Positions 671 through 57,441 of a DNA stretch of 64,000 nt are shown here, piece by piece. The stretch is from Malacoraja senta (Eukaryota), in assembly GCA_038087875.1 (NCBI GenBank), contig CM075992.1, forward strand, positions 3,474,001 to 3,538,000, read 5' to 3'. A program made the translations under genes and the position numbers. The notes under the pieces were generated by a model that was not told the origin of the DNA, ran no database searches, and saw nothing but the letters and a program-made list of their open reading frames with translations. Each line of letters starts with the position of its first letter. The first letter of the stretch is position 1.

Positions 671-724
671 GTGGTGGGAGATTGCAACCTTCACGTGGTC
701 CGCCCTGTTTCGACGAATGCAATC
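671..724 (+). ncRNA. Minimal HDV-like ribozyme (family A)
   Basis: P1 GUGGUGG/CCGCCCU (GGGGUGG in other copies, G1-U wobble), P2 GAUUGCA/UGCAAUC, P3 ACC/GGU, L3 UUCACGU, reduced P4 (GUUUCGA), J4/2 CGAA. Confidence 0.75.
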
Positions 725-800
725 AACCCGGCGTTACAATCAAATAAGATTAAATAGAACAAGTTGTCCTACAACTTTAGGCTGTGCACACCATACGCAG
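671..800 (+). mobile_element. Ribozyme-headed short retroposon, family A (3' tail eroded)
   Basis: Same sequence as the - strand copies at 2143-2284, 49593-49987 and 56704-56832. HDV-like fold at 671-724. Confidence 0.8.
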
Positions 801-803
801 CAT

Positions 804-878
804 TTATTACCCTTGTAGTATTTCTATTACCCTCGTAGTATTTTTTATTACCCTTGTAGTATTTTTATTACCCTCGGA
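804..878 (+). repeat. Minisatellite, about 21-bp unit (tttattacccttgtagta..), about 3.5 copies
   Basis: Direct reading of the tandem units. Confidence 0.8.
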
Positions 879-1049
879 GTATTTTCCACAGCACTTTAGA
901 AACAACAACACATGGTTGGTGAAAACCAAGACGACTCCAATTGCTGGAAATCGAAAAGGAAAACAGAAACCGCTGGAAACAATTAATAAGGCTGGGCAGA
1001 ATCTGTGGATTGAGAAACTGTTAAGACTTCAGTTTGATAGCCCTTAATT

Positions 1050-1378
1050 TTGTTTAGTTTGGTATAGTTTAGAGATACAGCGTGGAAACAGGCGCTCCGG
1101 CCCACCGGGTCCACGCCGACCGGCGATCCCCGCACACTGACACTATCCTACACCCACGAGGGACAAGTTTTACATTTACTAAAGCCACTTAACCGACAAA
1201 CCTGTGCGTCTTTGGAGTGTGGGACGAAACTGAAGATCTCGTAGAAAACGCACGCAGGTCACGGGGAGAATGTACAAACTCCGTACAGACAGCACCCGTA
1301 GTCAGGATCGAACCCGGGTCTCCGGCGCTGCATTCGCTGTAAAGCAGCAACTCTACCGCTGCGCCACCGTGCCGCCCC
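1050..1378 (-). mobile_element. HE1-type tRNA-derived SINE, full length. One of about two dozen copies or fragments (e.g. 4656-4960+, 9520-9717-, 21407-21763+, 23709-24005+, 24683-25000+, 35870-36175-, 40365-40615+, 46362-46688-, 48058-48360+, 48725-48998-, 55383-55665-, 59876-60215-, 62740-63620+)
   Basis: tRNA-like head with box A (tggcgcagcggtag) and box B (ggttcgatcc), a conserved core, a CR1-like 3' end (gggccgaagggcctgtttcc) and a (ctaaa)n tail. Confidence 0.9.
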
Positions 1379-1455
1379 AATGCTCATAGTAAAGGCACAA
1401 CTTTATTATGCTGGCGGGAGTGGAAGAGTCACTGTCAGTATGGTCATGTACTTAC

Positions 1456-1689
1456 CAGCTCCTCGCGGCCCCACTCAATTATATTGTGCACAGGGAGTAT
1501 ACCTCTACATGAGTAGCTAATCACACAGCTAACCACATAGTCACTTGCACCGGTTCTTATCGTGTCCAGAACAGACTTGTTTTTCTCTATCTGTGGTTCT
1601 ACTTGGTTTTGTGCCTCCCTCCATCCCTGTTTACCCACAACATCCTTTGCAGTTCTGCAGAACCACCTGTTGGTCATTAGCTGGCAATT
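1456..1689 (-). other. Candidate exon, 234 nt, open in phase 0 (NCQLMTNRWFCRTAKDVVGKQGW...IIEWGREEL)
   Basis: Acceptor ctttacttgcttag, donor CTG|gtaagt, length divisible by 3, non-repetitive. Protein not recognised; it could be a UTR exon or chance. Confidence 0.25.
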
Positions 1690-2027
1690 CTAAGCAAGTA
1701 AAGCAGGCTCACTGGGGCAACATGCAATCTGTCATTGTCCACATTAACTCTTAAACTCACATCCTCCTCTGCATTCCTGGCAGCATCAGTGGAGGGATAT
1801 AGACCTTGGGTCGGGACCCTACTTCAGTCTGGTGGGGCAGAGGAGAGATAGGGGGTGATGAGAGGTGAGCAGAAGGGGTGGGGCAAGATTTGATGATGAT
1901 CAACATGATAAGCTCATTCAGAGTCCCCTTGTGGTACAAAGTGGTCAGAGACATTGAATAATGAGGATTACAGCGATGATCAGCACGAAGATAGATCCAT
2001 AATGTAATGTTGATTCCCAAAGTCCAC

Positions 2028-2640
2028 CGGGGCTGTCATATGCTGAGAGAATGGAGCGGCTGGGCTTGTACACTCTGGAATTTAGAAGGATGAGAGGGGA
2101 TCTTATTGAAACATATAAGATTATTAAGGGTTTGGACACGCTTCTTCTTCTTCTCGCGTATGGCGTGCACAGCCTAAAGTTGTAGGACAACTTGTTCTGT
2201 TTGATCTTATTTGATTGTGCATGCCAGGTTGATTGCATTGGTTGAAACAGGGCAGACCAAGTGAAGGTTGCGATCTCCCACCCCGTTTGGACATGCTAGA
2301 AGCAGGAAACATGTTCCCAATGTTGGGGGAGTATAGAACCAGGGGCCACAGTTTAAGAATAAGCAGTAAGCCATTGAGAAGGGAGATAAGGAAAAACTTT
2401 TTCACACAGAGAGTTGTGAGTGTGTGGAATTCTCTGCCTCAGAGGGTGGTGGAGGCTGGTTCTCTGGATGCTTTCAAGAGAGAGTTAGATAGAGCTTTTA
2501 GGGATAGTGGAGTCAGGGGATATGGAGAGAAGGCAGGAACGGGGTACTGATTGGGGATGATCAGCCATGATCAAATTGAATGGCGGTGCCGAATGGCCTA
2601 TTCCTGCACCTATTGTCTGTTGTCTATTGACTATTGTCTA
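2028..2640 (+). mobile_element. HER1/CR1-clade LINE 3' fragment. Other copies: 4017-4290+, 5521-6026+, 10913-11406+, 12580-12953+, 13210-13545-, 15650-15963+, 16455-16755-, 18915-19270-, 31010-31410+, 36745-37125-, 49697-49967+, 53460-53740+, 54951-55260+
   Basis: RT C-terminus RTRGHSLRI..FFTQRVVSVWNSLPQ..FKRELD, a conserved 3' UTR and a (ctattgt)n or (tttctatg)n tail. Confidence 0.92.
2143..2284 (-). mobile_element. Ribozyme-headed short retroposon, family A, full length
   Basis: Inserted in a CR1 with a 13-bp TSD gtttggaca(c/t)gct (2130-2142 / 2285-2297). Begins GGGGTGG and ends catacgc..(aag)n. Confidence 0.88.
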
Positions 2641-2731
2641 CTGCACCAATTAAAAGGCCACCAGCTACTTCCTTCATGAAACCCTTACGAATGACTTAGA
2701 ATTTTCCTGATCTTATTAACCTCTTGGGATA

Positions 2732-2862
2732 GACAAAAGTGCTGGAGAAACTCAGCGGGTGCAGCAGCATCTATGGAGCGAAGGAAATAGGCAACGTTTC
2801 GGGCCGAAGCCCTTCTTCAGACTTTTGTCTACCTTCGATTTTCCAGCATCTGCAGTTCCTTC
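2732..2862. mobile_element. Penelope-like terminal fragment (inverted pair) inserted in env
   Basis: Flanked by the 16-bp duplication ttaacctcttgggata (2716-2731 / 2863-2878). Confidence 0.8.
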
Positions 2863-3275
2863 TTAACCTCTTGGGATATGTGGGCTGCCAAATTGGTTGT
2901 GTTGGAGGACTCATCAGGGATGTAGGTGCAGCATTCTTGCCCTATTATGGCACCTTTTTCGGCCAAAATAAAGTCCAAAGCCGTGCGATTCTGCAAGGCC
3001 TCGGTGCGGAGTGTAACCAGCTTGGCCGTCACAGAGGAGAGGGCCTTCTGCGTATCCGTAAGGGCATTTGCGGTTTCCTTAGCCAGTTTCTCCATAGCCG
3101 ATGCCATGTTGATCAGTTCTCGTGAGGCGCGGGCCGTCCCATAGAAGGGAAAGGCAATCATCCAAAACCGTTGAGATTCGGATATGCCTCGTTTGGACCG
3201 TAAGGGGAAGGATAACTCGGCCACCTGTACCCTAGTTCCAGCCTACACACTAGGGGACAATTTACAGACGCCAAT

Positions 3276-3368
3276 GGGATGCAGGCAGAAGCCTCCACGT
3301 GGCGCATCCCGGGCAATGCTGACGACAGGAACTGTACCGCAGTGACCGACTGAAGCAGCCAATTCTGC
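3276..3368 (+). ncRNA. HDV-like ribozyme (family B), canonical fold
   Basis: P1 GGGAUGC/GCAUCCC (3276-82 / 3304-10), P2 GCAGAA/UUCUGC (3285-90 / 3363-68), P3 GCC/GGC, L3 UCCACGU, P1.1 GG, long P4 region, J4/2 GCCAA. Confidence 0.88.
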
Positions 3369-3443
3369 AACCACCGACCGTCAACCGTCACTGACCGACC
3401 GGAAAGACGTGATGTGGAAGATGGCCGGACACGAGGAAGAAGA
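3276..3443 (+). mobile_element. Ribozyme-headed short retroposon, family B (168 nt)
   Basis: Inserted in an HE1 SINE with a 12-bp TSD acaga(c/t)gccaat (3264-3275 / 3444-3455). Tail ggacacgaggaagaag. Confidence 0.88.
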
Positions 3444-5140
3444 ACAGATGCCAATTAACCTACAAACCCGCACCTCTTTGGAGTGTGGGAGAACAGCACC
3501 TGGAGTCAGGAGTTTGTACGTTCTCCCCGTGACCACGTGGGTTTCCTCCGGGTGCTCCGGTTTCCTCCCACGTCCCAAAGACGTGCGGGTTTGTAGGTTA
3601 ATTGGCCCTCTGTAAATTCCCTCTAGTGTGTAGGGAGTGGATGAGAAAGTGGGATAACGGATTACTGGCATGAACGGGTGATCGAAGGTCAGCGCGTACC
3701 CGGTGGGCCCAAGGGACCATTTTCATACAGCATCTTTCAAACAACCAGTAGACTCAGCGATGTTAAGAAAATTAAGCGTCACTTCTTGGTCGCTTTCGAC
3801 GTTTTTGTCTCGTCTATGTTGGGGGAGCAAATATAAAGCGGTTTGGCTGACAGCCGGGAACTATCCAATGAGTGACTGAAGCTAGACACAAAACGCTGGA
3901 GTAACTCAGCGGGACAGGCGGCATCTCTGGAGAGAAGGAATTGGTGACGTTTTTCGAGTCGAGCCCGAGTCTGAAGAAGGGTCTCGACCCGAAACCTCAC
4001 CCATTCCTTCTCTCCAGGACTGAGATGAGAAAAACATTTTTCACACAGAGAGTGGTGAATCTCTGGAATTCTCTGCCACAGAATGTAGTTGAGGCCAGTT
4101 CATTGGCTATATTTAAGAGGGAGTTAGATGTGGCCCTTGTGGCTAAAGGGATCAGGGGGTATGGAGAGAAAGCAGGTACAGGATACTGAGTTGGATGATC
4201 AGCCATGATCACATTGAATGGCGGTGCAGGCTCGAAGGGCCGAATGGCCTACTCCCGCACCTATTTTTCTATGTTTCTATGTTTCTATGAGATGCTGCCT
4301 GTCCCGCTGAGTTACTCCAGCATTTTGTGTCTATCTTTGGTTTAAACCAGCATCTGCAGTTCCTTCAGACACGAGTGACTGAAGCATTTGTTTAATTTAC
4401 GATTGGTTGGTGGGGGAGGAAGGTTGCCATGGAGATTGATGTGTTGTCCCGCCAATGACAGGAGGATGGGGGGGCGGTGAGAGGTTGGAGACGGGGGAAC
4501 GTGTGATGACTTTAGCTCCAGCTGGCAACCATTTCAGTAGTTGCATTTGGGATGTCATAGACATTTGCAACACAGAGGTACGAACATCGATTTCTCTAAC
4601 TTCAAGTAACCCCTGCATTCATTCCCTCTCTCTCCATCCATCACCCACCCATGGTGGGCACGGTGAAGCAGCGGTAGAGTTGCTGCCTCACAGCGCCAGA
4701 GACCCGGGTTCGATCCTCACTACGGGTGCTGTCTGTACGGAGTTTGCACGTTCTCCCCGTGACCTGCGTGGGTTTTCTCCGAGATCTTTGCTTTCCTCCC
4801 GCACTCCAAAGACGTACAGGTTTGTGGTTAATTGGCTTGTATATGTGTAAACTGTTCCTAGTGTGTTTAGGATAGTGTTAGTGTGCGGGGATTGCTGGTC
4901 GGTGCGGACTCGGTGGGCCGAAGGGCCTGTTTCCACGCTGTATCTCTAACCTAACCTAAACCCTAGTCGTACCAGCTTCAAAGTCGTCTTATTGTTGAAC
5001 TCGTTCTCCCCCAACAAACAGCTAACAATGACCTACTTCTTTATTATCGTTACCTTTTTGCATATCTTTCATTCATTTGCTCTATATCTCTCTACGCCAC
5101 CATCTATTTATCTCGTTCCTCTTTTCCCTGACCCTCGAGT

Positions 5141-5171
5141 CTGAAGAAGGGTCTCGACCCGAAACGTCACC
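5141..5171 (+). ncRNA. Minimal hammerhead ribozyme core of a Penelope-like element. Further cores at about 7922-7949-, 8920-8947-, 10251+, 19880+, 25085+, 30034+, 37923-37950-, 38965+, 41439+, 45753-45780-
   Basis: CUGAAGA, stem II (GGGUC-UC-GACCC or GGGU-UUCG-GCCC), GAAAC, then GUC or GUU. Lies downstream of GIY-YIG coding fragments, as known for PLE hammerheads. Confidence 0.75.
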
Positions 5172-6026
5172 AATTCCTTCTCTCCAGGAGACGCTGCCTG
5201 TCCCGCTGAGTTTACTCCAGCTTTTGATGTCTATCTTCCAGTTTACCAACATATCCTCGGCACAGAGCAATGTAGCGGATGGATGGTTGTGACAGTAACT
5301 CAAAGGGTCGATGGCCCATTAGGACTTCCTCTTCAGCCAACCTGTCAGCTACTGTAGGATCTTCATTCCAGACATGTTCTCCCTTGGGCCAGTTCCCAGC
5401 CTCTACTGCAGTTAGAGTCGATGATGTCTACTTTGTAAGCATTTCAGTCCCATTAACTCTCAAACTTGGATAGAAATGCTCATAAAAAAGTGCTGGAGTA
5501 ACTCAGCGAGTCAGGCAGCATTGAGGGAGTGCAGCGTAGGTTTACAAGGTTAATTCCGGGATGGCGGGACAGTCATATGCTGAGAGAATGGAGCAGCTGG
5601 GCTTGTACACTCTGGAGTTTTAGAAGGATGAGAGGGGATCTCATTGAAACATATAAGATTGTTAAGGGCTTGGACACGCTAGAGGCAGGAAACATGTTCC
5701 CGATGTTGGGGGAGTCCAGAACCAGGGGCCACACACAGTTTAAGAATAAGGAGTAAGCCATTTAGAACGGAGACGAGGAAACACTTTTTCTCACAGAGAG
5801 TGGCGAGTCTGTGGAATTCTCTGCCTCAGAGGGCGGTGGAGGCAGGTTCTCTGGATGCTTTCAAGAGAGAGCTAGATAGGGCTCTTAAAGATAGCGGAGT
5901 CGGGGGATATGGGGAGAAGGCGGGAACGGGGTACTGATTGGGGATGATCAGCCATGATCACATTGAATGGCGGTGCTGGCTCGAAGGGCCAAATGGCCTA
6001 CTCCTGCACCTATTGTCTATTGTCTA

Positions 6027-6190
6027 TCTGTGGAGAACATGGATAGGTGACGTTTCACAGAGTGCTGGAGTAACTCAGCGGGTCAGGCAGCATCTGTGGT
6101 GAACATGGATAGGTGACGTTTCACAGAGTGCTGGAGTAACTCAGCGGGTCAGGCAGCATCTGTGGAGAACATGGGATAGGTGACGTTTCG
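6027..6190. repeat. 66-bp tandem repeat (about 2.5 copies) derived from the PLE terminus
   Basis: Units start at 6027, 6093 and 6159. Confidence 0.8.
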
Positions 6191-6899
6191 GTTTGGGACC
6201 CTTCAGGTTGATTGTAGCAGGGGAACGGGAGCTGGAAGTGAGCTGGGGGCAGGACAAAGGTGGATACAAAGGTGCTGGAATTACTCAGCGGTTCAGGCAG
6301 CATTTCCGGAGAAACATGAAAAGGTAATGTTTCCGGTCGGGACCCTTCTTCAGAATGATGCCTAAAGTAGGGTCCTGAAATCTCACCTCTACATGTTCTC
6401 CAGAGATGCTGCCTGAGCTGCTGAGTTACTGCAGCACGACTCAGCGGGTGAGGCAGCATCTCTAGGGAACATGGTGAGGATCTCCAGAAACCAAGAACCG
6501 CTGATGGTGGCTTTATGTAAACCAGCATTTGCAGTTCCTTGATTCTACAAGTGATGGGTGGATACAGGTGAGGGGAGGGGTGGGGCTTCTGTAATATTTT
6601 TCACATCGCTATGTGATTGATAACTAAAGAGATGCATTGTAGTCCCTTTTACTTAAGGGGAAAGGCGGAATATAATTTACTCTTTGGTCTTCCTTAGAAG
6701 GCTTAGTAAATTCGGCCATGTCGCACTGGTGTCAAAAATCATAAATGGGTAAACACAGTTTCTTGCCCTGAGTAGGGAAATCGAGAACCAGAGGACATAG
6801 GTTTATGGTGAGGGGGAAATGGTCCTAATAGGAACCAGTGGGATAACTTTTTTACACAAAGGGTGGCGGGTGTATGGAGTGAGCTGGCGGAGGAGGTAT

Positions 6900-6980
6900 C
6901 TTCTTCTTGCATATGGCGTGCACAGCCTAACAAAACACTACATCTATTTGTTTGTGCACGTTGGGTTGATTGCATTCGTG
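6900..6980 (-). mobile_element. Family A retroposon, 5'-truncated
   Basis: cttcttcttgcatatggcgtgcacagccta...gttgattgcattcgt matches the other copies. Confidence 0.75.
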
Positions 6981-7857
6981 GCATTTGAGGCAGGGACTAT
7001 CGCAACGTTTAAGAAGCTTTTAGACAGGTATGTGGATAGGACAGGTTGGAGGGATATGGGCCAAAAGCGGGCAGGTGGGACTAGTGTGGAGTGGGTGTGG
7101 TCGGTGTAGGCAAGTTGGGCCGAAGGGCCTGTTTCCGTGCAGTATCAGTCTGTGACTCTAGTGAGCAGCTACAGTGGGGGAACACTGGTTTCAAGATATC
7201 ACTTGATTCACAAGCTCTGTCATTGCTCAGAAAATCTCTCGCCTCCACAATGTCACAGCTTCCACCTATGTACTCTGAGACGTCACACTCCCTCATGCTG
7301 TGCATGGTTGGGTTCCAACACCTCTCTGCCTGCCCGTTTGAGGTGACAATGTTAGCACGGACTGTTTATTTTCAGACCAGATCTGTCTTTATTTGCAACT
7401 TCCCCTCAGAGCAGCTTAGTGGGACCAAGTGAATGGGTGAATGGGTGAAGATAGACACAGAATGCTGGAGTAACTCAGCGGGACAGGCAGCATCTCTGGA
7501 GAGAAGGAATGGGTGACGTTTCGGGTCGAGACCCTTCTTCAAACTTTCAAATGCTTCATAGTTCACAATAAGGCCATAAGGAATAGTCGTAGATTTAGGC
7601 CATTCGGCCCATCAAGTCTACTCAGCCATTCGATCATGGCTGATCTATCCCTCCCTCCTAACCCCATTCTCCTGCCTTCTCCCTGTAACCTCTGAACCCC
7701 TGTACTAACCAAGAATGTACAGGTAATCATGAATCACGGGTAGCCAAAATGTTCATCATGCTAGTGTGCGGGCATCGCCAGTCGGCGTGGACTCTCTCGG
7801 TTGGCCAAAGGGCCTGTTTCTGCGCTGTCCCTTGAAACTAAACCAAGCTAAATTAAA

Positions 7858-8080
7858 GGTAGACAAAAATGCTGGAGAAACTCAGCGGGTGAGGCAACAT
7901 CTATGGAGCGAAGGATTAGGTGACGTTTCGGGTCGAGACCCTTCTTCAGACGTCTGAAGAAGGGTCTCGACCTGAAAGGTCACCTATTTCTTCGCTCCAT
8001 AGATGCTGCCTCACCCGCTGAGTTTCTCCAGCATTTTTGTCTACCTTCGATTTTTCCAGCATCTGCAGCTCTTTCTTAAA
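7858..8080. mobile_element. Penelope-like terminal repeats in inverted (palindromic) arrangement
   Basis: The arms are reverse complements centred near 7951, each with a hammerhead core. Confidence 0.8.
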
Positions 8081-8561
8081 CAAGCTAAGTTAAAGGTCTC
8101 CAATTTCATTACAAACTATTCCCCGTAGCTCTTGAATTGAGGATGTTTCAAATTTATTTCATCAGGCGGTTATGAGTCAAACACATTACTTTGGACTGGA
8201 GTTCCATCACACGTGGCAATAGCACGAATCTCCTTCTCCAAGAGAGAGTTGTGGTCAAATTTGTTTTTATCAGAACCCAGTAGTTTCATGTTGACTAAAC
8301 TGAGTGTAGCAGTTCCGTCCAGATTTATTTCCTTAACAGTTTAAGTTTCGAAACTGTCATAGATGCTTTGAGCCATGCAGCACAACAACGTCATCGGCCC
8401 ACCAATTCTACATTAGCCATCAAGCACCCATCTCAATACTATCCCTCACGTTTTATTTTCCCTACCCTCATCGAACCCAGGTCCCTGCAGTAAACAAAAT
8501 GTGTAGGAAGAAACTGCAGATGTTGGTTTAAATCAAAGATAGACACAAAAAGCTGGAGTTA

Positions 8562-8875
8562 TAGCCCTGTCCCACGGTACGAGTTCATTCCAAGAGCTCT
8601 CCCGAGTTTTTAAAAAATCAGCCTCGTGGTAAGCACGGAGAATGAACGTGGCGGGTACGTCGGAGCTCGGGGACGTCTCTTAGCGGCTCATTACGCTAAC
8701 GGCAGGTACTCGGGAAGACTCGCTAATGGCAGGTAAGCACGGGAAGACTCGTGAAGATTTTTCAACACGAGAGCCCCGGGTACCGACGAGTGGCCATTAC
8801 CGTAAATCTCCGAGTTCGAATCAGGGCCAACTCGGGAGAGCTCTTGGAATGAACTCGTACCGTGGGACAGGGGTT
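8562..8875. mobile_element. PIF/Harbinger-like MITE
   Basis: Long TIRs N6-TGTCCCAC.../...GTGGGACA-N6, with a 3-bp TSD tta/taa splitting ctggag-taa-ctcagc. Confidence 0.8.
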
Positions 8876-9880: not shown

Positions 9881-10341
9881 ACATCGGTGAGACCAAGCGG
9901 AGGCTGAGCGATCGTTTCGCCGAACACCTCAGTTCGGTCCGCAATAATCAACCTGACCTCCCGGTGGCTCAGCACTTCAACTCCCCCTCCCATTCCGTAT
10001 CCGACCTCTCTGTCCTGGGTCTCCTCCATGGCCAGAGCGAGCAACACCGGAAATTGGAGGAAATGCACCTCATATTCCGCTTGGGGAGTCTGCATCCTGG
10101 GGGCATGAACATTGAATTCTCCCAATTTTGCTAGCCCTTGCTGTCTCCTCCCCTTCCTCAGCCCTCAGGCTGTCTCCTCCCATCCCTCAGCCCTCGGGCT
10201 CCTCCTCCGCCTTTTTTCTTTTCCTTTCTTCTCCCCACCCCCCCGTCAGTCTGAAGAAGGGTTTCGGCCCGAAACGTTGCCTATTTCCTTCGCTCCATAG
10301 ATGCTGCTGCACCCGCTGAGTTTCTCCAGCATTTTTGTCTA
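9881..10341 (+). mobile_element. Penelope-like element 3' fragment: GIY-YIG endonuclease C-terminus plus hammerhead-bearing terminus
   Basis: YIGETKRRLSDRFAEH..PVAQHFN..RKLEEMHLIFRLGSLHPGGMN; 13-bp TSD cctactatgttct (9868-9880 / 10342-10354). The uninterrupted host sequence is visible on the - strand near 22690-22775. Confidence 0.9.
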
Positions 10342-23039: not shown

Positions 23040-23267
23040 TTCTTCTTCTTGCGTTTGAGGCAGCAGAAGTCTGCAGCAGGGTGATGCCATCCGGTTCGAC
23101 ATCCGTAGGTGCCCGCCCTAAAGTGGGCGCATGCTCCGGCTTGGCGGCAAGCAGCGGCGCTGCTGCTGTCTCTGTCTGTTGTCGTTGGCCTGACTGAGGT
23201 CAGATGACGGGGCTCTCGCCACGGGGAGGTCGACAACATGAGCCGGAAAGCACCTGAAGTGAACCCG
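23040..23267 (-). mobile_element. Ribozyme-headed short retroposon, family C
   Basis: Tail caaacgc(aag)n. HDV-like fold at 23267-23177: P2 UGUUGUCG/CGACAACA, L3 UCCCCGU, P1 GGGUUC/GAGCCC, P4 CUGAC/GUCAG, J4/2 GCCAA. P3 is imperfect and no clear TSD is seen. Confidence 0.6.
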
Positions 23268-29064: not shown

Positions 29065-30381
29065 GTGGGAATTGTACGGTGGAGGTGAATGAACCGAGAA
29101 GGCTGCAGTGGCGACTGTGGCATGCATGGGGTTAATGGAGGCTGGGAGAGTAATCCCAGGCAGGAACGCAGCTGGGGACCTTAGATTGTCGTCAGGAGCG
29201 AGGCTAGGATGCTTTGTGTCTGGCTCCCTTAACAAGACATTGGATCCGTGCCCAGGGGCAGTGGAGATGGGACGCGCTCCAGCTCAGTGTGGTGTCAGCA
29301 CAGCTCCCATGGCTGGAGGGGAGGTGGGGGAGGGGGGATGGGGATGGCTGGAAAGACCTTGTGTGTGCAGCCAACTGCTCTGTAATACTGCCGTGGGAAC
29401 CCCTTGACTCCAGCCCCAGTCCGAGCCAAAGAAACAGACACAGAAGCAACAGGCACCAAGTGCTGGAGTAACTCAGCCGGTCAGGCAGCATCTCTGGAGA
29501 ACGTGAACGGACGACTCACCCAGTCTGAAGATGGGTCTCGAACCGAAACGTCACCTATTCCTTCTCTCCAGAGATGCTGCCTGTCCCGCTGAGTTACTCC
29601 AGCCTTTTGTGTCTATCTTCCGTGTAAACCAGCATCTGCAGTTCCTTCCCACACAGAAGGGACTGCTGTGAATCCCGGCTCTAAGTAACTGCAGAGAAGG
29701 ATATAAAGTGCTGGGGTAACTCGGTAGGTCAGACAGCCTCTCTAGAGAACATGGATAGTCAAGAATGTTTTATTGTCATGTGTCCCAGATAGGACAATGA
29801 AATTCCTGCTTGCTGCAGCACAACAGAATATGTAAACATAGTACACAACGGGAGAAGAAAAACAGTTCAGTGTGTGTATATACACATGCACACATACTCA
29901 ATAAATAACAGATATAGTACAATAATGACAATAGTCTGTTGTAGTTCAGAGGTTATTAGTTGTTGTGTTTAATAGCCAGGTGGGTGTCGGGAAGACGCTG
30001 TTCCTATTTCAGGCTCCTGCACCTTCTCATGGTCTGAAGAAGGGTCTCGACCCGAAAACGTCACCCATTCCTTCTCTCCAGAGATGCTGCCTGTCCCGCT
30101 GAGTTTTTTGTGTGTCTATCTCCAGAGATGCTGCCTGACCTGCTGAGGGAGCTATCCCAGGTGGAATGCAGCTGGGAACCTTGGGAACATTATGCGTGGA
30201 ATATTAACACGGAACATGCTGTGTTCATTCTGTATTAACCAGCATCTACAGTTCCTCGTTTAAGAAGGAACTGCAGATGCTGGAAAATCGAAGGTAGAGA
30301 AAAGTGCTGGAGAAACTCAGCGGGTGCAGCAGCATCTATGGAGCGAAGGAAATAGGCAACGTTTCGGGCCGAAAACCCGGA

Positions 30382-30687
30382 AGGGTTTCGGCCCGAAACG
30401 TTGCCTATTTCCTTCAGGGTTTCGGCCCGAAACGTTGCCTATTTCCTTCAGGGTTTCGGCCCGAAACGTTGCCTATTTCCTTCAGGGTTTCGGCCCGAAA
30501 CGTTGCCTATTTCCTTCAGGGTTTCGGCCCGAAACGTTGCCTATTTCCTTCAGGGTTTCGGCCCGAAACGTTGCCTATTTCCTTCAGGGTTTCGGCCCGA
30601 AACGTTGCCTATTTCCTTCAGGGTTTCGGCCCGAAACGTTGCCTATTTCCTTCAGGGTTTCGGCCCGAAACGTTGCCTATTTCCTTC
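30382..30687 (+). repeat. Nine perfect tandem copies of a 34-bp unit (agggtttcggcccgaaacgttgcctatttccttc) inside an inverted PLE pair (about 30260-30750)
   Basis: Units start at 30382 and recur every 34 bp to 30687. Confidence 0.95.
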
Positions 30688-39192: not shown

Positions 39193-39227
<35 letters not shown>

Positions 39228-43854: not shown

Positions 43855-44020
43855 GGGGTGAAGGATAGAGCGTTCACGTCGCGGCCCTGTATCCACCAAT
43901 CTTTCCACCACCACCGCTCACAAGAAGCGACAAGACAGACACCATTGTGTGCAGGTGCCGAGATGTGTGTTCAGCTCTGGCTGGACAACTTCTAATCTTG
44001 TGTGGGGACTCGATAAGAAG
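43855..44020 (+). mobile_element. Ribozyme-headed short retroposon, family D (older, degenerate)
   Basis: HDV-like fold at 43855-43906 (P1 GGGGUG/GGCCCU, P2 GGAUAGA/UCUUUCC, P3 GCG/CGC, L3 UUCACGU, J4/2 CCAA). Tail ggactcgataagaag; degenerate TSD accgcacccact / actgcaccact. Confidence 0.72.
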
Positions 44021-44359: not shown

Positions 44360-44525
44360 AGCCCCTGTCCCACTTTCCCAAGTTACTCACAAATTCTCCC
44401 GAGTTTTCCCCTTGATTCAAACTCGGAGAATGTCGTAGGAGTCCGTAGGAGTCCGTAGATGTACTCGGGGCATCGGGTAAGTCGGGATGTTTTTTCAGCA
44501 TGTTGAAAAAATGTCCACGAGTTAA

Positions 44526-44615
<90 letters not shown>

Positions 44616-44707
44616 CCCTGAGTACCTACAGCTGGCATCTCCGAGTTTGAATCGAGGGGAAAACTCAGGAGAATTCGTGAGTAACTCGGGAAAGTGGGAC
44701 AGGGGAT
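44360..44707. mobile_element. PIF/Harbinger-like MITE containing a (TA)n expansion (44528-44613)
   Basis: Long TIRs, TSD taa/taa. Confidence 0.82.
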
Positions 44708-45410: not shown

Positions 45411-45481
45411 AGTACGTGTTGGAGTGTGTAGGAAGGAACACCGAAGTTTACACCAAAGATAGACACAAGAAGCTGGAGTAA

Positions 45482-48700: not shown

Positions 48701-49592
48701 TTTTGGGTCGAGTCGCTTGTTTAGTAGTTTAAAGATACAGCGCGGAAACAGGCCCTTCGGCCCACCGAGTCCGTACCGACCAGCGATCCCCGCACACTAA
48801 CACTATCCTACACACACTAGGGACAATTTACAATTACACCAAGCCAATAACCTACAAACCTGTTCGCCTTTGGAGTGTGGGAGGAAACCGAAGATCTTGG
48901 AGAAAACCCACGCAGGTCACGGGGAGAACGTGCAAACTCCGTACAGACAGCACCCGTAGTCGGGATCGAGGGCAGCAACTCTACCGATGCGCCACCCTGC
49001 TGTGGTTTGCAGGTTAATTGGCTTCTGTAAATTGCCCCTTAGTGTGTAGGATGGGAAAGTGGGATAATGTAGAACTAGTGTAGGGGTGACATGGTCAGTG
49101 TGGACTCAATGGGCCAAAGGGCCTGTTTGCACACTATTTATATATATATATTTTTTAACTTACTGCAAAATGATTTTTCAGCTGCTGTTTATACAATTAA
49201 TCTGTTATAGAGCTTGGAGTGTCTGCAACATATGTTTGGTGTGTGAAATCTCTGGCCTCTTTCAAACACCCAATTGCTATCCCCTCCCCTTGCCTTCCCA
49301 ACGTCTGAGGTTGTGTAATTCTAGGGAGAAGCGACAAATGATTATGGGGTTGTCATTAAGAATCGGCTGTCTAAATATTTGCCCAATGAAGTGCTGGGTG
49401 AGCTGCCAGTGCATATTATGCTTCTCGGTCATTAACTCCAGACGCCTGCTTCAACAGCGTGTGAAGGTTAATTTATCTGAAGTGTTCACAGTGGTACTGG
49501 GTGGTGAGAGAAACCTACCTTGCATTATTTGTGTCGGAAGGAACTGCAGATGCTGGTTTACATCGCAGATGGACACAAAATGCTGGAGTAAC

Positions 49593-49987
49593 CTCTTCTT
49601 CTTGGGTATGGCGTGCACAGCCTAAAGTTACAGGACAAATTGTTCTGTTTGATAGTGCCCACCGGCTTGATTGCATTCGTCGAAACAGGGTGAGGTGAGA
49701 AAAAACGACTGAGATGAGAAAAAACGTTTTCACTCAGAGTTGTGAATTTGTGGAATTCCCTGCCACAGAGGGCAGTGGAGGCCAAGTCACTGGATGGATT
49801 TAAGAGAGAGTTAGATAGAGCTCTAGGGGCTAGTGGAGTCAAGGGATTATGGGGAGTAGGCAGGCACAGGTTATTGATTGGGAACGATCAGCCATGATCA
49901 CAATGAATGGCGGTGCTGGCTCAAAGGGCCAAATGGCCTCCTCCTGCACCTATTTTCTATGTTTCTGAGATTGCAATCTCCCACCCC
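49593..49987 (-). mobile_element. Family A retroposon split by a CR1 insertion (about 49697-49967)
   Basis: 10-bp TSD ctggagtaac (49583-49592 / 49988-49997); 5' end GGGGTGG at 49987. Confidence 0.8.
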
Positions 49988-51145
49988 CTGGAGTAACTCG
50001 GACAGCATCTCTGGAGAAAAGGACTAGGTGATATCTGAAGAAGGATTTCAAACCGAAATGTCGCCCATTCCTTTCAGAGATGCTGCCTGCCCCGCTGAGT
50101 TACTCCTGCGTTTTGGGTCTATCTTTGGTATCGTCCGGTACTTTCTGTCACATGTACTGAGGTAACAGTGACATTCATTTATGAATAGGTGATGAATAGG
50201 TGAGGTTTTGGGTCGAGGCCCTTCTTCAGACTGAGAGTCGGGGAGAGGGAAACCAGAGGTATGTAAAGGTACAGAACTGACCAGAGCTGGCACGGATGTC
50301 CCAGGAAAAGTGGAGCCCACAATGATCCATTGTTGGCTGTGGAAGAGTTGATAACAAAGGGATGCGAACAGTGAAACTAGCAGATGACTAGGGTGGGGGA
50401 GGGTGGGAGAGGGAATGCAAGGGTTACTTGAAAGTTGGAGAAATCAATGTTCATTCTGCTGGGTTGTAAAGCTGCCCAAGTGAAATATGAGGTCCAATTT
50501 ATGGAGGAACACCGCGTCTCATCATGGAGGAGGCCCAGGACAGAAAGGTCGGTATAGGAAGATAGGACACAAAAAGCTGGAGTAACTCAGCGGGACAGGC
50601 AGCATCTTTGGAGAGAAGGAATGGGGTGACGTTTGGGGTTGAGACCCTTCCTTCAGAATGGGAGTTGGGGGGAGGGGGGGGGGAGTGAGTCTAGAGGTAT
50701 GGAAGGGTAATGTGTGAAAACTCCAGATCAAATCGGATAATGAGATGTAAAGTTTCATTGTTAGCTGAGGAGAGGGTGACAAGGAGTGTGTGTGGGGGGG
50801 GGGGGGGGGGGGTGAAATATTTGCAGCCATGAGATTGGGGAGGTGGGGTTTTGGGAGTAGAGATGAAAAACACTTGAGTGAGATGGAAATCTATTTGTTT
50901 GCAATCTTCCACAAGCGAATGATTTGGTAAAGGTGATGCTCTGAGCAGCATCTCTGGAAAAGAAACGAACGTCAAATTGAAGGCAGACAAAAATGCTGGA
51001 GAAACTCAGCGGGTGAGGCAACATCTATGGAGCGAAGGGAATAGGTGACCGTTCGGGTCGAGACCATTTTCAGGCGTGAAGGCTGACAGTTGGGAAGTCT
51101 GTAATGCAAGGGTTAAAACAGACCTCTGCTGCCTAAAATGGAGTT

Positions 51146-51510
51146 GTTATTATTATAATTAAACTTTCATTTCAGACTCGAGGTCCAGGTAAAAGGCGAC
51201 ATTACATAGAATACATTGCATAAAAACACCATAAAATACATATTTAAAAAAAAAAAGCTTAGTAAATGACTTATGAGCATCATAACATATATACAAAAAC
51301 ACTATACATGGTTTAAAATCCAGAATAACAGGAAAGTTCTGTGTCCTACAACAAGGCAACTTTACCAATGTCTCCACAGTGGGGATTGGTAGCGTGTAGC
51401 ACTAAACCTTACGTTTGATTAGGACCAAGATAATTTCATTTTCAGAGTCATTAGTCCGGCAAATAAATGTATACATAAGATTTGTTCGGATGGCTTGTAA
51501 AGTTGCCGGC
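51146..51510 (-). mobile_element. RTE-X-like LINE 3' fragment
   Basis: TLQAIRTNLMYTFICRTNDSENEIILVLI..(frameshift)FSATRYQSPLWRHW; 3' end ggacctcgagtctgaaatgaaagttt. Confidence 0.6.
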
Positions 51511-54211
51511 TATATCAGCAGCTCCACACCACAAACCCTGTTTGAGACAACAGATGTTTGGAAACAAATGCTCGGGCTGATTTGAAGGGACCAGTAAATC
51601 ACGAGGCCACCTGTGCAGTCACGAGATAAAACGTTTCCCTTCCTAGAAACATCAGAGGCTATAGCCTGGCGCCCGATGCAGAACACAACTGGTGCATTCG
51701 ACACCTGGTAGGTTAGCGAGCTTTGAGAACCTTGGTTACCCACTCTTCTTGCATCAGGGTGAAAACGGGCAATTTTTTTTCTGCAGCCCACTGCTGAGGG
51801 AGGCAGGGAGAGTGCTGGAATCGTGCGTTCGGGTAACGGCTTGAGATGGAGGACCACGCCTCAAAGGGGGGGGGGGTGCAGGCGGGGAACTGGTACATTG
51901 GGGGGTCTGCACTTGGTCTAGATTTAGTATAAAAGTGCGTGCTTCAACTGAACTGTTGGAACTTCATCTTTGGAAGAAGAGAGATATAGACCTTGTCTTT
52001 TGGGGTGAGGGGGGAGAGAAGATCTTGACTTTTGAGAGGGGAGGGCGAGGAGAGGATGATCTTGCTCTTTGAGGAGGGAGAGAAAGACCCCTCCTATGGG
52101 GGGGGGGGGGGTGGTGTAGGGGAGGAGACAGAGCTCACTCATTCTGTTCTATTCTGTTCTGTAGTTTTTTGTACAATCCGCAGGCATTGCCACTTTCATT
52201 TCACTGCACATCTTGTATGTGTATGTGACAAATAAAGTTGACTTGAGAGTACTTGTATTGTGGTGAGATGCGGCCAGCAGACTCTGATGTACAGAGGGGC
52301 GTGTGGCTTGTTATTTGGTTAATGCTCTACTGTATTTTGCTTTAATATTTAGTTGTTTCTGCACTGAAAAAAGATTCTTTCTCCCGTCATCGATGTGAAA
52401 TGTGCTTGCATTTCGTTGCAGGGTCTCCAACCAAAGCCGATTGTTTCCCCAGATCCTCCCTCGCACGAGTATCCCCAGCTTGAAGGCCGAAGGGCCAACT
52501 CCGGCACCTGTCGTCCATTGTCATTCTCTCATTCTCCGATTTCTTGGTCTAATTGCGGTTAGAGCTGTGAAGGTTGTTTCAAGAACCCGCTGGTTGTAAA
52601 TTCTTTTGGTTTCTACGCAAGCTCTTGTTCGGTGGAAGTTGCTGTCACGCTCGCGAATACAGTCGGGTGCAGATGCGATGTAAATTCTTGCTTTCAGTGA
52701 CAACACCTTAAATGTGGAATTTCTAACGGGAATAGAGTGAGTGGTAGAGGGGCAGGCAACCAGGAGATCCAGTTTCAGTGGATACAACCCTGGTGCTTGG
52801 CAGAGCAGTCACCTAGGGTGGCACAGCGGTAGAGTTGCTGCCTTCCAGCGCCACAGACCCAGGCTTCATCCTGACTACGGGTGCTGTCTGTACGGAGTTT
52901 GTACGCTCTCCCGTGGGTTTTCTCTGGGTGCTCAGGTTTCCTCCCACACTCCAAGGACACACAGGTTCGCAGATTCATTAGACATGGGTAGCAATAACTG
53001 GTGGGTGGTTTCTTTGTGTTTTTCTCTCTCTATCTTGGCACTTCATATGCATATTTGAGTGCAAGCTGCTTCTTATAGTGCAGTCATGAACATTTCAGCA
53101 GCTTTGAAATGTCATTCGTTTGTAGGATTTGTTGAATTTTACTCTGCTAGATTTTCCTTGGGAATAAATTATCGACTGGGGAAAAAAAAAATCCTTCTTG
53201 ATAAATACTGCTGGAGGAACTTGGCAGATGGGCAGCATCTGGGGGGGGGGGGGATGGGCAGAGAATAAGGTGCACGGATGCTGCCTTACAGCGTCCGAGA
53301 TCTAGGTTCGATCCTGACCTCTGGTGCTGTCTGTGTGGAGTTTGCTTGCACCTTCTCTCCGCGTGGATTTCCTCTCGCATCCAAAAGACGTGCGGGACTT
53401 TAGGTTAATTGTCCTTTGTCAATTGCCCGTAATGTGTAGGGGAGTGGATGAAAAGTATAAAGGGGAGGCCATTTAAGGCTGAGGTGAGAAGAAAAAAATT
53501 TCGCCCAGAGAGTTGTGAATTTGCGGAATTCCCTGCCACAGAGGGCAGTGGAGGCCAAGTCACTGGATGGATTTAAGAGAGAGTTAGATAGAGCTCTAGG
53601 GGCTAGTGGAGTCAAGGGATATGGGGAGAAGGCAGGCACGGGTTATTGATTGGGGACGATCAGCCATGATCACAATGAATGGTGGTGCTGGCTCGAAGGG
53701 CCGAATGGCCTCCTCCTGCACCTGTTTTCTATGTTTCTATAAAAGGTGAGATAACATTGACAGGTGATCATTGGATCTGGTGGGCTGAAGGGCCAGTTTC
53801 TTGCAGTATGTGTTGGGGGGGAAGCGGGGGGAGACTGTTTTGAACCTTTCACACTGAGTTCCTCCTGCAATTCTTGCTCGTCTACTTTGGTTGTTTAATT
53901 CTAGTTGTAACCCACGCCATTACTCAAGTCATGGGGTATTTAAAAAAAAAAAATTTGACATTGATAGTAAGAGCATCAACGGTTGTGTGGTGCAGGCTGG
54001 AGAATGGGGTTGGGGGGGGAAATTAATGTTCCAATGGCAGAACAGACATGATGGGCTGAATGGCCTAATTCCACACTTATGTCTTGTGGTCTCCAGCCAG
54101 CAATAAATCTCTTTAGAGGAGTTTTTAGTGATGGATTTTGGTTTGTGCAACTTGGTATTTTGCTCTGGAATTAATGTTTTTTTTCTTTTTCTTTTTGTCT
54201 TTGAATCTCAG

Positions 54212-54731
54212 CCCCTCTCTGCTCCCAAGACCCCCTGGGCCATGAAGTCTGAAGGGTCGGACGAATCCCCTCCAGCAGATGCCAACGCCTCTAACGTCAG
54301 AGGTGCATCGGCAATGCTGGGCAAGCAGAAGAACGATGGTGCCACCAAGGAGAAGCAGAGTACCAATCCCACCGCTGGTTCTCAGGTCAAGGCCAAAGTG
54401 GGCACCTCGAGCGGCAGACTACCCATCTCCAGCCGGACAAACCCCTCCCAGGCCAGCAAACTGGTCAAGAAGGACCAATGAGCAGGACCCAAGAGCCGCC
54501 CCGCCGCGGCCAAAACTGCGCCGAGGTCGGGCATGTCGGCCCACGACAAAATAATGGAGAAGAAAATGATGGCCAGGAGCAAGGTCGCTGTGGAGAGTGT
54601 GGCTGTGCCCGGCAGTGCCGGCGGCAATGGTAGCCTGTCCACCCAAGTGGCCAGAGGTGGAGCAGCCAAGGCATTGCCCCCCACCAAAGCTGTTGCTAAA
54701 GTCAAAACCCCAGCGCAGCACACCCCTGCAG
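54212..54731 (+). CDS. Coding exon of a basic Ala/Lys/Ser/Pro-rich protein (MKSEGSDESPPADA...KVKTPAQHTPA), tentatively PRR36/BTBD8(KIAA1107)-like; in-frame TGA at 54479-54481
   Basis: Strong polypyrimidine acceptor (..tctttgaatctcag), gccATG at 54242, donor CAG|gtatgt (phase 1), one frame open across the exon apart from one TGA. The family guess rests only on the recalled MKS(D/E)G start and the composition. Confidence 0.72.
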
Positions 54732-54825
54732 GTATGTCTATTCCTTGCCCACTTTGGTTGGGGTGGGACACAGGGAGCTCTCCAGCATTGCGGAATGGAG
54801 TAACTCAGCAGGTCGGGCTGCTTTA

Positions 54826-55379
54826 AGGGCCTGTCCCACTTTCACAACCTAATTCACGACCTCTGCCGAGTTTGCCCTTGACTCGTACTCGTACTCGCAG
54901 CATGGTCGTCACGAGGTCGTAGGTAGGTCGTAGCAGGCCGTGATTTACAGTACAGGTCACAGTTTAAGGATAAAGGGGACATCTTTTAGGACTGAGATGA
55001 GAAAAATATTTTTTACACAGAGAGTGGTGAATCTGTGGAACTCTCTGCCACAGAAGGTAGTTGAGGCCAGTTCATTGACTATATTTAAGAGGGAGTTAGA
55101 TGTGGCCCTTGTGGCTAAAGGGGATCAGGGGGTATGGAGAGAAGGCAGGTACAGGATACTGAGTTGGATGATCAGCCATGATCATATTGAATGGCGGTGC
55201 AGGCTCGAAGGGCCGAATGGCCTACTCCTGCACCTATTTTCTAGGTTTCTATGTTTCTATGTGATGCTAGTCGTAGGTACTCGTGGCATCAAGTAGGTCG
55301 GGGCGTTATTCTAGCATGATGAAAAATGTCCACGAGTAAAAAAGGTGGTGAATTAGGTCGTGATAGTGGGACAGGCCCT
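54826..55379. mobile_element. PIF/Harbinger-like MITE with a nested CR1 fragment
   Basis: TIRs present, TSD tta/tta; body matches 45482-45707. Confidence 0.82.
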
Positions 55380-56703
55380 TTAGTTGTTTAGTTTCAAGAT
55401 AGTGTGGAAACAGGCCCTTCGGCCCACCGAGTCCGTTCCGACCAGCAATCCCCGCACACTAGCACTATCCTACACACACACTAGGGACAATTTACAATGA
55501 TACCAAGCCAATTAACCTACAAAACCTGCTCGTCTTTGGAGTGTCGGATAAAACCCACACAGATCACGGGGAGAACGTACAAACTCTGTACAGACAGCAC
55601 CCGTAGTCGGGATCGAACCCAGATCTCTAGCGCTGTAAGGTGGCAACTCTACTGCTGCGCTGCCCATGGAGAACATGGACAGGTGGATGTTTTGGATCAT
55701 AATCCCCACCCCCCCCCCCACTTAAGTTCAAGTAATTTAACTAAATAAATTCCTTGCAGTCTAGGAAAACCACTACACCACATGGTACTAGTTCTTGAAG
55801 GGACATCTAACCTGGAGTGAGTGTCTGCGGTAGAAATAGAATCTAGCGTAGTCTGTTTCTGAGGCAGTGTTAAATTTCAGGGCAAAGCGCTCTGTCTGTG
55901 CATACCTAGTCTATTATTCAAGAAGTCGACCTGGAAATGCTAACTCTCTCTCCGAAACCTACCTGATCCAAGAGTCTCTTCCAGCAATGGGTTTTGGCCC
56001 TTCTGCGTATATGGCACGGGAAATATTCTTAACATTCTGTGTCATTCGCCTTCAGTGTGGCTCGACTGGGGTAGCAGCAATGTGGAGGCTAAAATGTCTC
56101 TTCCATATGTTTTAGCAGCTGAATCTCCCTTCTCTGTATGTAGCTGGGTTTTGTCCCCCCCCCCCCTCCCCTCTCTCCCTTCTGGCTAACTTCTCCACAA
56201 GACTACGCCACATCATTTAAAAAAAAATCTTTAAAAGTGGCTTAATTTAGACCAGTTATTTACCAAAGCCCGTTTACCAAAATGGTTTAAAATGAAATTA
56301 TTTTTTTAATATAACTGTCCTCTGACTAGCTTTGCAGAAGGTTAAATCGGTCTCATTATTTTGAGCTATTCTGGGCAGAATTAAAGATAGACACAAAGTG
56401 CTGGAGTAACACAGCGGGACAGGCAGCATCTCTGGAGAGAAGGTTTGGATGATGTTTTCTGGGTCGAGGCCCTTCTTCAGACTGGGCAGAATGAATGTGC
56501 AGCTGAACCGCCATGTTGCAAGCTACCACCATCTGTCTTGCTGGTGAGCAGAATGGGTGTGGTGAGGGGGCTGTCACAGCAGTGGGTGGGGGTTTGGTTG
56601 AGAGATACTGCGTGGAAACAGGCCCATCGGACCACCAAGTCCACGCCGACCAGCGATCCCCGTACACATGTTGGGGACACTTTGCAATTGTATTGAGCCA
56701 ATT

Positions 56704-56832
56704 CTTCTTCTTGCGTATGGCGTGCACAGCCTAAAGTTGTAGGGCAACTTGGTCTTATTTGTTTGTGCACGCCGGGTTGATTGCATTCGTCGAAACAGGG
56801 CAGACCACGTGAAGGTTGCAATCCCCCATCCC
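56704..56832 (-). mobile_element. Family A retroposon inserted in an HE1 SINE
   Basis: TSD gccaa(t/c)t; 5' end GGGATGG at 56832; (aag)n tail. Confidence 0.85.
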
Positions 56833-57252
56833 GCCAACTGACCTACAAACCTGTACGTCTTTGGAGTGTGGGAGGAAGCTGGAGATCCCGGAGAAAACCC
56901 ACGCGGGTCACGGGGAGAACCTACAGACAGAACCCGTAGTAAGGATCGAACCCGGGTCTCTGGCGCTGTGAGGCAGCAACTCTACCGCTGCGCCACCCAC
57001 CAGGTGGTGACCTTTCACTTAACGCGGGGGAGGTGGTTGGTATCACACCCAGGGATAACTTTGCTAATAGAGGTACATAAAAGAGATGCATGCCGAGAAT
57101 TGTGGACGCAGCCCAGACCATCGCGCAAACCAAATCCCCCAAATCCAGGGGTTAATTTTAACACTGTACCCCCATCAATGGAGGCATGGGGGAGAGGCGG
57201 GTGTGTTTGTGTGTCTAGTGCAGGTGGCATCATTCCTGCTTGCAGTATCTCC

Positions 57253-57319
57253 GGCCCCATAGCAGAAGCGTCCACGTGGCGGGGCTGGAAACTGGACGTA
57301 TCCTGAGCTAATTCTGCTA
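57253..57319 (+). ncRNA. HDV-like ribozyme (family E)
   Basis: P1 GGCCCC/GGGGCU (G1-U), P2 UAGCAGAA/UUCUGCUA, P3 GCG/GGC (one mismatch), L3 UCCACGU, P1.1 GG, P4 GGA-CGUA-UCC, J4/2 GCUAA. Confidence 0.8.
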
Positions 57320-57441
57320 CCACCATCATCTATTGCGACAAGTGATGGCTTCCACTGATTGTCGCCGGAAGCTTGCGTCCTTTTCAGGACGGACGATGAC
57401 GGCGAGGCCAACATTTGTAACAAGATGGACACAAAATGGAA
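57253..57441 (+). mobile_element. Ribozyme-headed short retroposon, family E (189 nt)
   Basis: Perfect 12-bp TSD tgcagtatctcc (57241-57252 / 57442-57453); tail ggacacaaaatggaa. Confidence 0.85.

Follow-up and report, generated by a model that had tools for sequence, protein, structure and literature searches.

What gives a short retroposon a precise 5′ end when it encodes no protein and lacks a tRNA-derived head? The question is raised by a stretch of 64,000 nucleotides from Malacoraja senta (NCBI GenBank assembly GCA_038087875.1, contig CM075992.1, positions 3,474,001 to 3,538,000 of the forward strand), referred to here as the window. An earlier note, based on the letters of the window alone, described nine insertions in five short families (A to E), each headed by a fold resembling the hepatitis delta virus (HDV) ribozyme, and proposed that a long interspersed nuclear element (LINE) of the Ingi or Vingi type mobilizes them. 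The analysis presented here indicates that the families are very likely bipartite, non-autonomous retroposons of the non-long terminal repeat class without open reading frames (ORFs), with 5′ ends made by a ribozyme of predicted activity and moved by a Vingi-type LINE. Each family is built of three parts: an HDV/CPEB3-type ribozyme at the 5′ end, an unrelated, family-specific body, and a short 3′ recognition end followed by (AAG)n. The evidence lies in this anatomy, the copy number of the families, the target-site duplications (TSDs) found at the first ribozyme nucleotide (G1), the covariation of the helices, the Rfam-level membership of several families, and the architecture of the LINE.

The HDV-like core is defined by G1, a C-rich loop L3, the G that follows P1′ (P1.1), and the catalytic C of the J4/2 junction followed by N-A-A. 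Family majority sequences, derived from fetched copies, display the order P1-P2-P3-L3-P3′-P1′-(P4)-C(N)AA-P2′ in each of the five families. L3 conforms to UYCMCGU in all five (UUCACGU, UCCACGU or UCCCCGU), and both the G after P1′ and the C-N-A-A directly before P2′ are present in five out of five, with J4/2 reading CGAA, CCAA or CUAA. A script count revealed that 84 of the 84 P1, P2 and P3 pairs of the majority sequences form. The helices themselves are diverse, consisting of five distinct P1 and four distinct P2 sequences among the families; examples are the P1 of C (GGGGCUC/GAGCCCU), the P1 and P2 of D (GGGGUC/GGCCCU and GGAAAGA/UCUUUCC), and the P3 of E (GCG/CGC). Strands exchanged between families pair poorly, forming 0–5 of 6–8 pairs in P2 (except between B and E, which have a common P2) and 2–6 of 6–7 pairs in P1. 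The claim of a common HDV-type helix order maintained by different but compensating helices is borne out by these counts and swaps, on which the covariation is based; the cross-family MAFFT alignment is out of register at P1′ and P2′. Complete pairing holds for the family majorities and not for every window copy, as the D copy is broken in P1 and P2 and the E copy in P3. Families B, C and E have a P4, which is nearly absent in A and D, and the ribozymes range from 52 to 93 nt across the families, with those of A and D limited to 52–54 nt.

A descriptor of the helix order, designed like its shuffle control post hoc with the sequences already known, detected five matches in the window, compared with a mean of 0.12 and a maximum of one in 50 dinucleotide shuffles. 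Claimed sites account for four of the five matches, and the remaining one is weak and falls inside another repeat. Over 354 kb of fetched sequence, the descriptor returned 90 matches inside A to E copies and two weak ones elsewhere. Directly after P2′, a short ACC/ACCACC motif is shared by the majority sequences of families B, D and E and by two further loci of the host genome, L115 and L119; these families are otherwise unrelated, and the motif may belong to a functional 5′ module.

Judged by sequence, and not by fold alone, the heads of the families are of the CPEB3 type. When matches were reported by E-value, the only HDV-class matches in the 64 kb of the window were three claimed sites on the predicted strand: the E copy (CPEB3, 30.5 bits, E 4e-4), the B copy (HDV 28.4, CPEB3 22.2 and HDV-F-prausnitzii 22.1 bits), and the D copy (CPEB3, 17.3 bits). 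Less-decayed copies of E reach 36.9 and 35.1 bits with the CPEB3_ribozyme model (RF00622, gathering score 35), and those of D range from 26.9 to 43.7 bits with one copy (43.7) above the cut-off. In contrast, less-decayed copies of C (HDV-F-prausnitzii, 32.6 bits; gathering score 44) and B (HDV, 26.8 bits; gathering score 50) stay below theirs. The check with HDV and CPEB3 models suggested in the earlier note consequently has a divided outcome, with less-decayed E and D copies and the head of the LINE described below passing the CPEB3 cut-off, and the window copies and families A, B and C falling short. A whole-genome search with RF00622 placed 39 of the 59 scored candidates above the cut-off, with a top score of 64.2 bits; none of the 14 control genomes had a match. 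The rough first-look count for this model in the host genome was 102,231, and CPEB3-like heads number at least dozens and probably thousands. Further CPEB3-type families in the host genome are represented by L115 (59.7 bits), L119/L121 (51.4/47.7 bits) and L120 (48.2 bits), and the start of P4 is common to L119/L121 and the CPEB3 consensus. In the cmscan alignments, P2, P3, L3, J4/2 and the first part of P4 match the CPEB3 consensus in long identical runs, while P1 differs with compensation.

The families are dispersed, TSD-flanked retroposons with (AAG)n tails. The host genome searched is 1.94 Gb in size, and the first-look candidate counts are lower bounds, amounting to 3147 for A, 400 for B, 858 for C, 1444 for D and 2009 for E. 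Identity to the window copy is 90–100% in the 40 matches scored per family. The alignment starts at element base 1 in 36–39 of the 40 for families A, B, D and E; in family C, 38 of 39 non-self matches begin at query base 3, which is 2 nt 3′ of the family G1. The copies sampled came from 30 loci for each of families A, B and C and from 10 short stretches for each of D and E; duplicated loci, among them several pairs that represent identical assemblies of a single insertion, were removed. The enrichment of 5′ ends at G1, which the earlier note had set as a genome-wide test, is found in this full-length-biased sample: among 106 independent copies that extend to the 5′ end, 69 have a TSD of at least 7 bp flush with the predicted G1, 16 have one that ends 1–3 nt upstream of G1, and 21 lack one as an exact match. 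The TSDs are 7–13 bp long and begin with A in 61 of 85 cases, which suggests microhomology between tail and target, with the tail annealing at the nick. In family E, the 5′-terminal 24-mer occurs 1282 times genome-wide (up to two mismatches) and a 3′-proximal 24-mer 840 times, with no occurrence of the reversed-pattern controls; the 5′ end of E is hence not depleted, unlike that of LINEs subject to ordinary 5′ truncation. At the other end, copies terminate in CG-N(0-3) followed by (AAG)n. The terminus is ACACGA in B and E, ACGCAAG(AAG)n in A and C, and CGATAAG(AAG)n in D, so that the GAA/AAG-rich tails noted in the window extend to all five families. Words of the E element are also present in sequencing runs of at least eight organisms, and contigs from three of these runs break at 57252/57253, that is, at G1; the family or its close relatives are thus not confined to one assembly.

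An autonomous LINE with the same two ends was looked for as the earlier note had advised, and one was found. Seven of the 12 top RF00622 matches fetched share one sequence that enters an ORF ∼30 nt past the ribozyme; the other top matches fetched consist of at least three more ribozyme-headed families (L115; L119/L121; L120) and a D copy (L122). In the LINE copy L123, the ribozyme occupies positions 41–124 of the locus (CPEB3, 63.8 bits) with P1 GGGGAUC/GAUCCCU, P2 GGUAGAA/UUCUACC, an 8-bp P4 and CGAA at J4/2; the LINE head scores 59.7–64.2 bits overall. An ORF at 154–2958 encodes 934 aa with Exo_endo_phos (PF03372), Exo_endo_phos_2 (PF14529) and RVT_1 (PF00078) domains, and a second short frame at 2980–3225 encodes a Cys/His knuckle. 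The position of the knuckle in the next frame points to a frame break in this copy. The 3′ end reads ...GACACGAAAAG(AAG)n at ∼3190, and the copy is flanked by an 11-bp TSD. The LINE is therefore a compact element of ∼3.15 kb, comprising a single ORF with an apurinic/apyrimidinic-like endonuclease (APE) and a reverse transcriptase (RT) and no RNase H domain by Pfam. The terminus ACACGA(AAG)n is common to the LINE and families B and E, and D and E align to the LINE head across the P3-L3 core. Neither the LINE nor families G, H and I have a copy in the window by BLAST, the window matches of those loci being unrelated flanking repeats. Two further loci, L113 and L118, carry the LINE ribozyme head and depart from the LINE sequence after ∼330 and ∼105 nt, respectively; these could be internally deleted derivatives or interrupted copies.

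Relatives of the LINE are widespread. Among 8000 scored candidates, 306 match its ORF at E ≤1e-10, and the matches listed are 46–87% identical; those listed with species names (46–55%) come from aphids, psyllids, moths, crabs, urchins, starfish, lancelet, Antarctic fish and Anolis. Homologs at 46–63% identity are spread over many animals, Anolis among them. A scan of metagenome contigs retained 80 loci encoding LINE relatives. In these loci, the descriptor has three matches, all upstream of the ORF on the same strand (L131, L138, L149), and none elsewhere, and Rfam HDV-class matches are present in four of the 15 loci scanned (L127, L131, L138, L154). By eye, a ribozyme also lies upstream of the ORF in L135, and the 3′ half of one in L126. 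The P1 and P2 sequences of these metagenome heads are all different and all paired. Relatives that retain a 3′ end finish in GACACGA, or in a sequence very near to it, before an (AAG)n or (ATG)n tail.

The assignment of the LINE to Vingi has support from its architecture and from published termini. A 2026 review describes Vingi elements as compact, with a single ORF, APE and RT, and no RNase H (PMC13708176). The supplement of Kojima 2018 prints nt 2–74 of Vingi-2_Gav and nt 1–64 of Vingi-4_Crp (PMC5786205), and by eye both contain the same CPEB3-like ribozyme as the head of the LINE. Their P2 (UAGCAGAA/UUCUGCUA) appears identical to that of family E, and their P3 and L3 to those of D and the LINE head, with the L3 of E off by one base. 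The printed end of SINE2-1_AMi, ...GGACACGAAAAAGG..., resembles the termini described above. The earlier guess of an Ingi/Vingi-type partner gains support from these likenesses, which are based on comparison by eye and domain architecture, not an RT tree. Kojima 2018 names Vingi as the fourth clade yielding bipartite non-autonomous elements, without a ribozyme (PMC5786205). In the portions of the literature searched, with Ruminski 2011 and Kojima 2011 lying outside them, Vingi was found neither to be linked with a ribozyme nor to have a head closely resembling the CPEB3 ribozyme of mammals. Both the presence of a ribozyme in Vingi and its closeness in sequence to CPEB3 may therefore be new.

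The likeness to CPEB3 bears on the origin of the mammalian ribozyme. The cautiously favored reading is that vertebrate Vingi LINEs natively carry the CPEB3-type ribozyme as their 5′ head and that the mammalian CPEB3 intron ribozyme is an exapted Vingi or Vingi-derived head, not a de novo host invention. The human genome retains a trace of Vingi, X12_LINE (PMC5753468), which makes such an exaptation plausible and testable. If true, Vingi would join six other clades with ribozyme heads, and would be the fourth such clade among the four from which bipartite non-autonomous elements are known. Every clade that spawns bipartite parasites would then, if confirmed, be ribozyme-headed. An element that makes its own 5′ end can do without a promoter, which would explain why such clades are able to spawn parasites.

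The mechanism favored for the short families begins with passive transcription of an element within a longer host transcript. The ribozyme would then cut just 5′ of G1, giving the retroposon RNA its exact 5′ end. The protein of a Vingi-type LINE, with the same head and tail, would bind the CG-N(0-3)-(AAG)n end and nick the target, and target-primed reverse transcription, with the tail annealed to a target starting with A or AG, would result in a full-length insertion with a 7–13 bp TSD. Catalysis, independence from a promoter through reliance on read-through, and mobilization in trans by the LINE are expected by analogy with R2, L1Tc and CPEB3. The LINE with the same head and tail is probably what copies the short families. 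Limited information on transcription comes from one polyA RNA-seq run, in which the E element collected 89 reads, in both orientations, and its unique flanks none. Sixteen reads cross G1 and 81% of the E reads continue into unlike sequence, a pattern suggestive of many copies transcribed passively as parts of longer RNAs.

Several observations weigh against this explanation. At Rfam gathering thresholds, the window has no hits, and all nine copies fall below the cut-off. Family A, which also lacks P4, matched no Rfam model in either the window or the less-decayed copies. Only 63 of the 105 sampled copies (duplicates included) keep every required feature, with loss of the L3 CpG as the commonest damage. 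The descriptor and its control share the post hoc design already described, and the copies used for 5′ ends and TSDs were the best matches to full-length queries. No pile-up of read starts at G1 of E was reported in the RNA-seq run, which accordingly lends no support to cleavage in vivo; as a single low-depth, polyA-selected data set for a family with many decayed copies, it is a weak test and does not decide the matter. Compared with the one LINE family represented by L123, or with each other, the bodies of A to E have no likeness beyond the core and the last ∼12–17 nt plus tail. Plain internal deletion of that LINE is therefore not their origin, and derivation of a body from the untranslated regions of a LINE by internal deletion was not found in this comparison. 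The Vingi assignment, as noted, comes from 5′-end similarity judged by eye and from domain architecture.

The unlikeness of the bodies to L123 bears most directly on the identity of the partner. The short families might instead have been moved by a different (AAG)n-tailed LINE, and the termini of A, C and D, which do not end in ACACGA, fit such a view; the result that no (AAG)n-tailed LINE fragments were detected in the 354 kb of fetched sequence scanned also counts on its side. This alternative appears unlikely, since the ACACGA-(AAG)n terminus is common to B, E, the LINE and its metagenome relatives, the head type is common to all families and the LINE, and no other candidate LINE was seen. 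A separate concern is the purpose of the 5′ module, which could be kept mainly for the LINE protein (RNA binding, protection of the 5′ end, or second-strand steps as with the R2 5′ RNA), with cleavage secondary or lost in the short families. RNA reads that cross G1 uncleaved and the recurrence of the ACC/ACCACC motif after P2′ in B, D, E and further families agree with such a role. Published work is compatible with it as well: bipartite non-autonomous LINEs retain the 5′ end of their LINE for a reason left open by Kojima 2018 (PMC5786205), and the R2 ribozyme fold is described as giving cap-like protection in the 2026 review (PMC13708176). However, protein binding alone requires neither 5′ ends exactly at G1 nor the catalytic features (G1, L3, the G after P1′ and C-N-A-A), which are kept in five families despite compensating change in the helices. 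A mainly protein-serving module is accordingly given little chance, and the two roles are not mutually exclusive.

The sub-threshold scores of the window copies, the lack of an Rfam match for family A and the post hoc shuffle control would also be expected if the fold were a decayed relic or a product of chance, with the uniform 5′ end owed to a fixed start of transcription or to a promoter inside the element, as in ordinary short interspersed nuclear elements (SINEs). Such an origin is highly improbable in view of the less-decayed copies and the LINE head, which score as high as 64.2 bits with a curated ribozyme model, and the 84 of 84 pairs that form with between-family covariation. It is further disfavored by the finding of no tRNA and by the same module at the head of related LINEs in unrelated metagenome contigs. 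A ribozyme-made 5′ end and movement by a Vingi-type LINE thus continue to be the very likely explanation of the five families.

The individual insertions in the window provide the anatomical detail behind these families. All nine are present at the places first described, as revealed by reading the sites and by a BLAST of the window with family queries that returned these nine and no others. Family A comprises five copies. The copy at 671–802 (+ strand) is full length with its ribozyme core at 671–724, lacks an (AAG)n tail, and has TTTATT as its TSD immediately upstream of G1; element position 2 is T in place of the family majority G, leaving one P1 mismatch. Directly 3′ of this copy, positions 800–880 hold ∼4 tandem copies of a ∼20-nt unit, tattacccttgtagtattt. 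The full-length copy at 2143–2284 (− strand; G1 at 2284, core 2231–2284, TSD TGTCCAAAC) has its (AAG)n tail at the low-coordinate end and mutations in L3 and J4/2. The copy at 6899–6979 (− strand) is 5′-truncated at about element position 43, with only the P2′ strand remaining of the ribozyme. At 49593–49987 (− strand; G1 at 49987, TSD GTTACTCCAG), the copy spans 395 nt and is interrupted between P2 and P3 by a later nested insertion of another repeat (∼49691–49963). The copy at 56702–56832 (− strand; core 56779–56832) is older, with 85% identity to the 2143–2284 copy and a short or imperfect TSD.

The remaining families are represented by one copy each. The B copy at 3276–3443 (+ strand) sits inside another SINE and displays a ribozyme at 3276–3368 with a long P4 and an 11-bp TSD containing one mismatch. 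The C copy at 23040–23246 (− strand; ribozyme ∼23178–23246, TSD AGGTGCTTT) has CC in place of the family GG at its G1 end (23246) and an insertion in P1′. The 5′ end originally given for this family requires correction, as the family majority begins 2 nt further 5′ (GGGGCUC, 7-bp P1). The D copy at 43855–44020 (+ strand) has a P4-less ribozyme at 43855–43906, a short or imperfect TSD, and one mutation each in P1 and P2 relative to the family majority that break pairing. The E copy at 57253–57441 (+ strand; TSD GCAGTATCTCC) carries its CPEB3-type ribozyme at 57253–57319 with one P3 mismatch. Of the six window copies proposed to have a TSD exactly at the predicted G1, those at 2284, 3276, 49987 and 57253 are clear, and those at 43855 and 56832 have only short or imperfect duplications. 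Apart from the 395-nt span of the split A copy, the elements are 131–207 nt long, with room for no more than a small ORF. ARAGORN detected no tRNA genes in the window, and no tRNA, 7SL or 5S match, and hence no SINE head of the pol III type, was found at the elements in an Rfam scan of the window. The description of the elements as lacking both an ORF and a tRNA head is consistent with these results.

Other features of the window and the fetched loci were also noted. Window positions 643–3784 (locus L001), which include two A copies and the B copy, form a 3142-bp stretch that is 100% identical to one located 28,142 bp upstream on the same contig (L002), the result of a recent segmental duplication or of duplication in the assembly. 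Near-identical pairs, flanks included, also occur among the fetched loci (L006/L009, L036/L037, L101/L102 and L103/L104). A near-perfect palindromic hairpin of ∼110 nt at 63013–63127 matches microRNA models on both strands, with mir-197 the best at 52.2 bits, below the gathering score of 74. A recurring, mir-722-like palindromic hairpin unit (46 bits; gathering score 81) is present at 30342–30421, at ∼2790–2830 and at 2800–2917 of L033, and is probably part of another repeat family. Positions 44375–44692 contain an inverted repeat of ∼318 nt with arms resembling those of miniature inverted-repeat transposable elements, and match MIR7533 at 48 bits, far under the gathering score.

The closest known systems place these elements within a recognized kind, as R2, RTE and Ingi already provide examples of ribozyme-headed LINEs with short parasites, and Vingi-derived bipartite elements have been described. 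One close relative of the motif is the CPEB3 ribozyme of mammals, which exists as one conserved copy within an intron and for which a role in the host gene has been proposed. The heads described here have the same fold, and the best of them reach 35.1–64.2 bits with its model (RF00622) against a gathering score of 35. In contrast to the mammalian copy, the motif here heads thousands of mobile copies at their 5′ ends, and P1 and partly P2 differ by compensation. The CPEB3-like heads offer a concrete, testable origin for the mammalian ribozyme, and their naturally occurring compensating variants, among them P4-less forms of 52–54 nt, make up a series useful to ribozyme biochemistry. The near absence of P4 in families A and D, for which activity is only predicted, is reminiscent of minimal HDV-like or theta ribozymes, which are described as bacterial and phage RNAs beside tRNAs (PMC10879173).

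Among mobile elements, the short internally deleted elements (SIDEs) derived from R2 in Drosophila (Eickbush and Eickbush 2012, PMC3414825; PMC3774820) are similarly ORF-less and combine the HDV-like ribozyme of the LINE 5′ end with a 3′ end recognized by the LINE protein. Their 5′ end is reported to arise by ribozyme self-cleavage from a co-transcript, and they are internal deletions of R2 specific to a site in 28S rDNA. The elements described here differ from R2 SIDEs in being dispersed, in having (AAG)n tails, in comprising several families with unrelated bodies, and in having an APE-type LINE as their partner. The NARTc/RIME and SIDER elements of trypanosomatids are likewise non-autonomous partners that share the 5′ HDV-like ribozyme of an Ingi-group LINE (L1Tc/ingi, Pr77-L1TcRz; PMC3383444, PMC4035085). 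The trypanosome 77 nt is described in these sources as an internal promoter as well; the present families belong to another host and clade, and their ribozyme is of the CPEB3 type by sequence. The Vingi derivatives SINE2-1_AMi and SINE2-1_ACar of Kojima 2018 (PMC5786205) also reuse the ∼70 nt of the Vingi 5′ terminus in short elements. In those derivatives a tRNA head lies upstream of the Vingi piece, whereas in the elements described here the ribozyme itself is the head.

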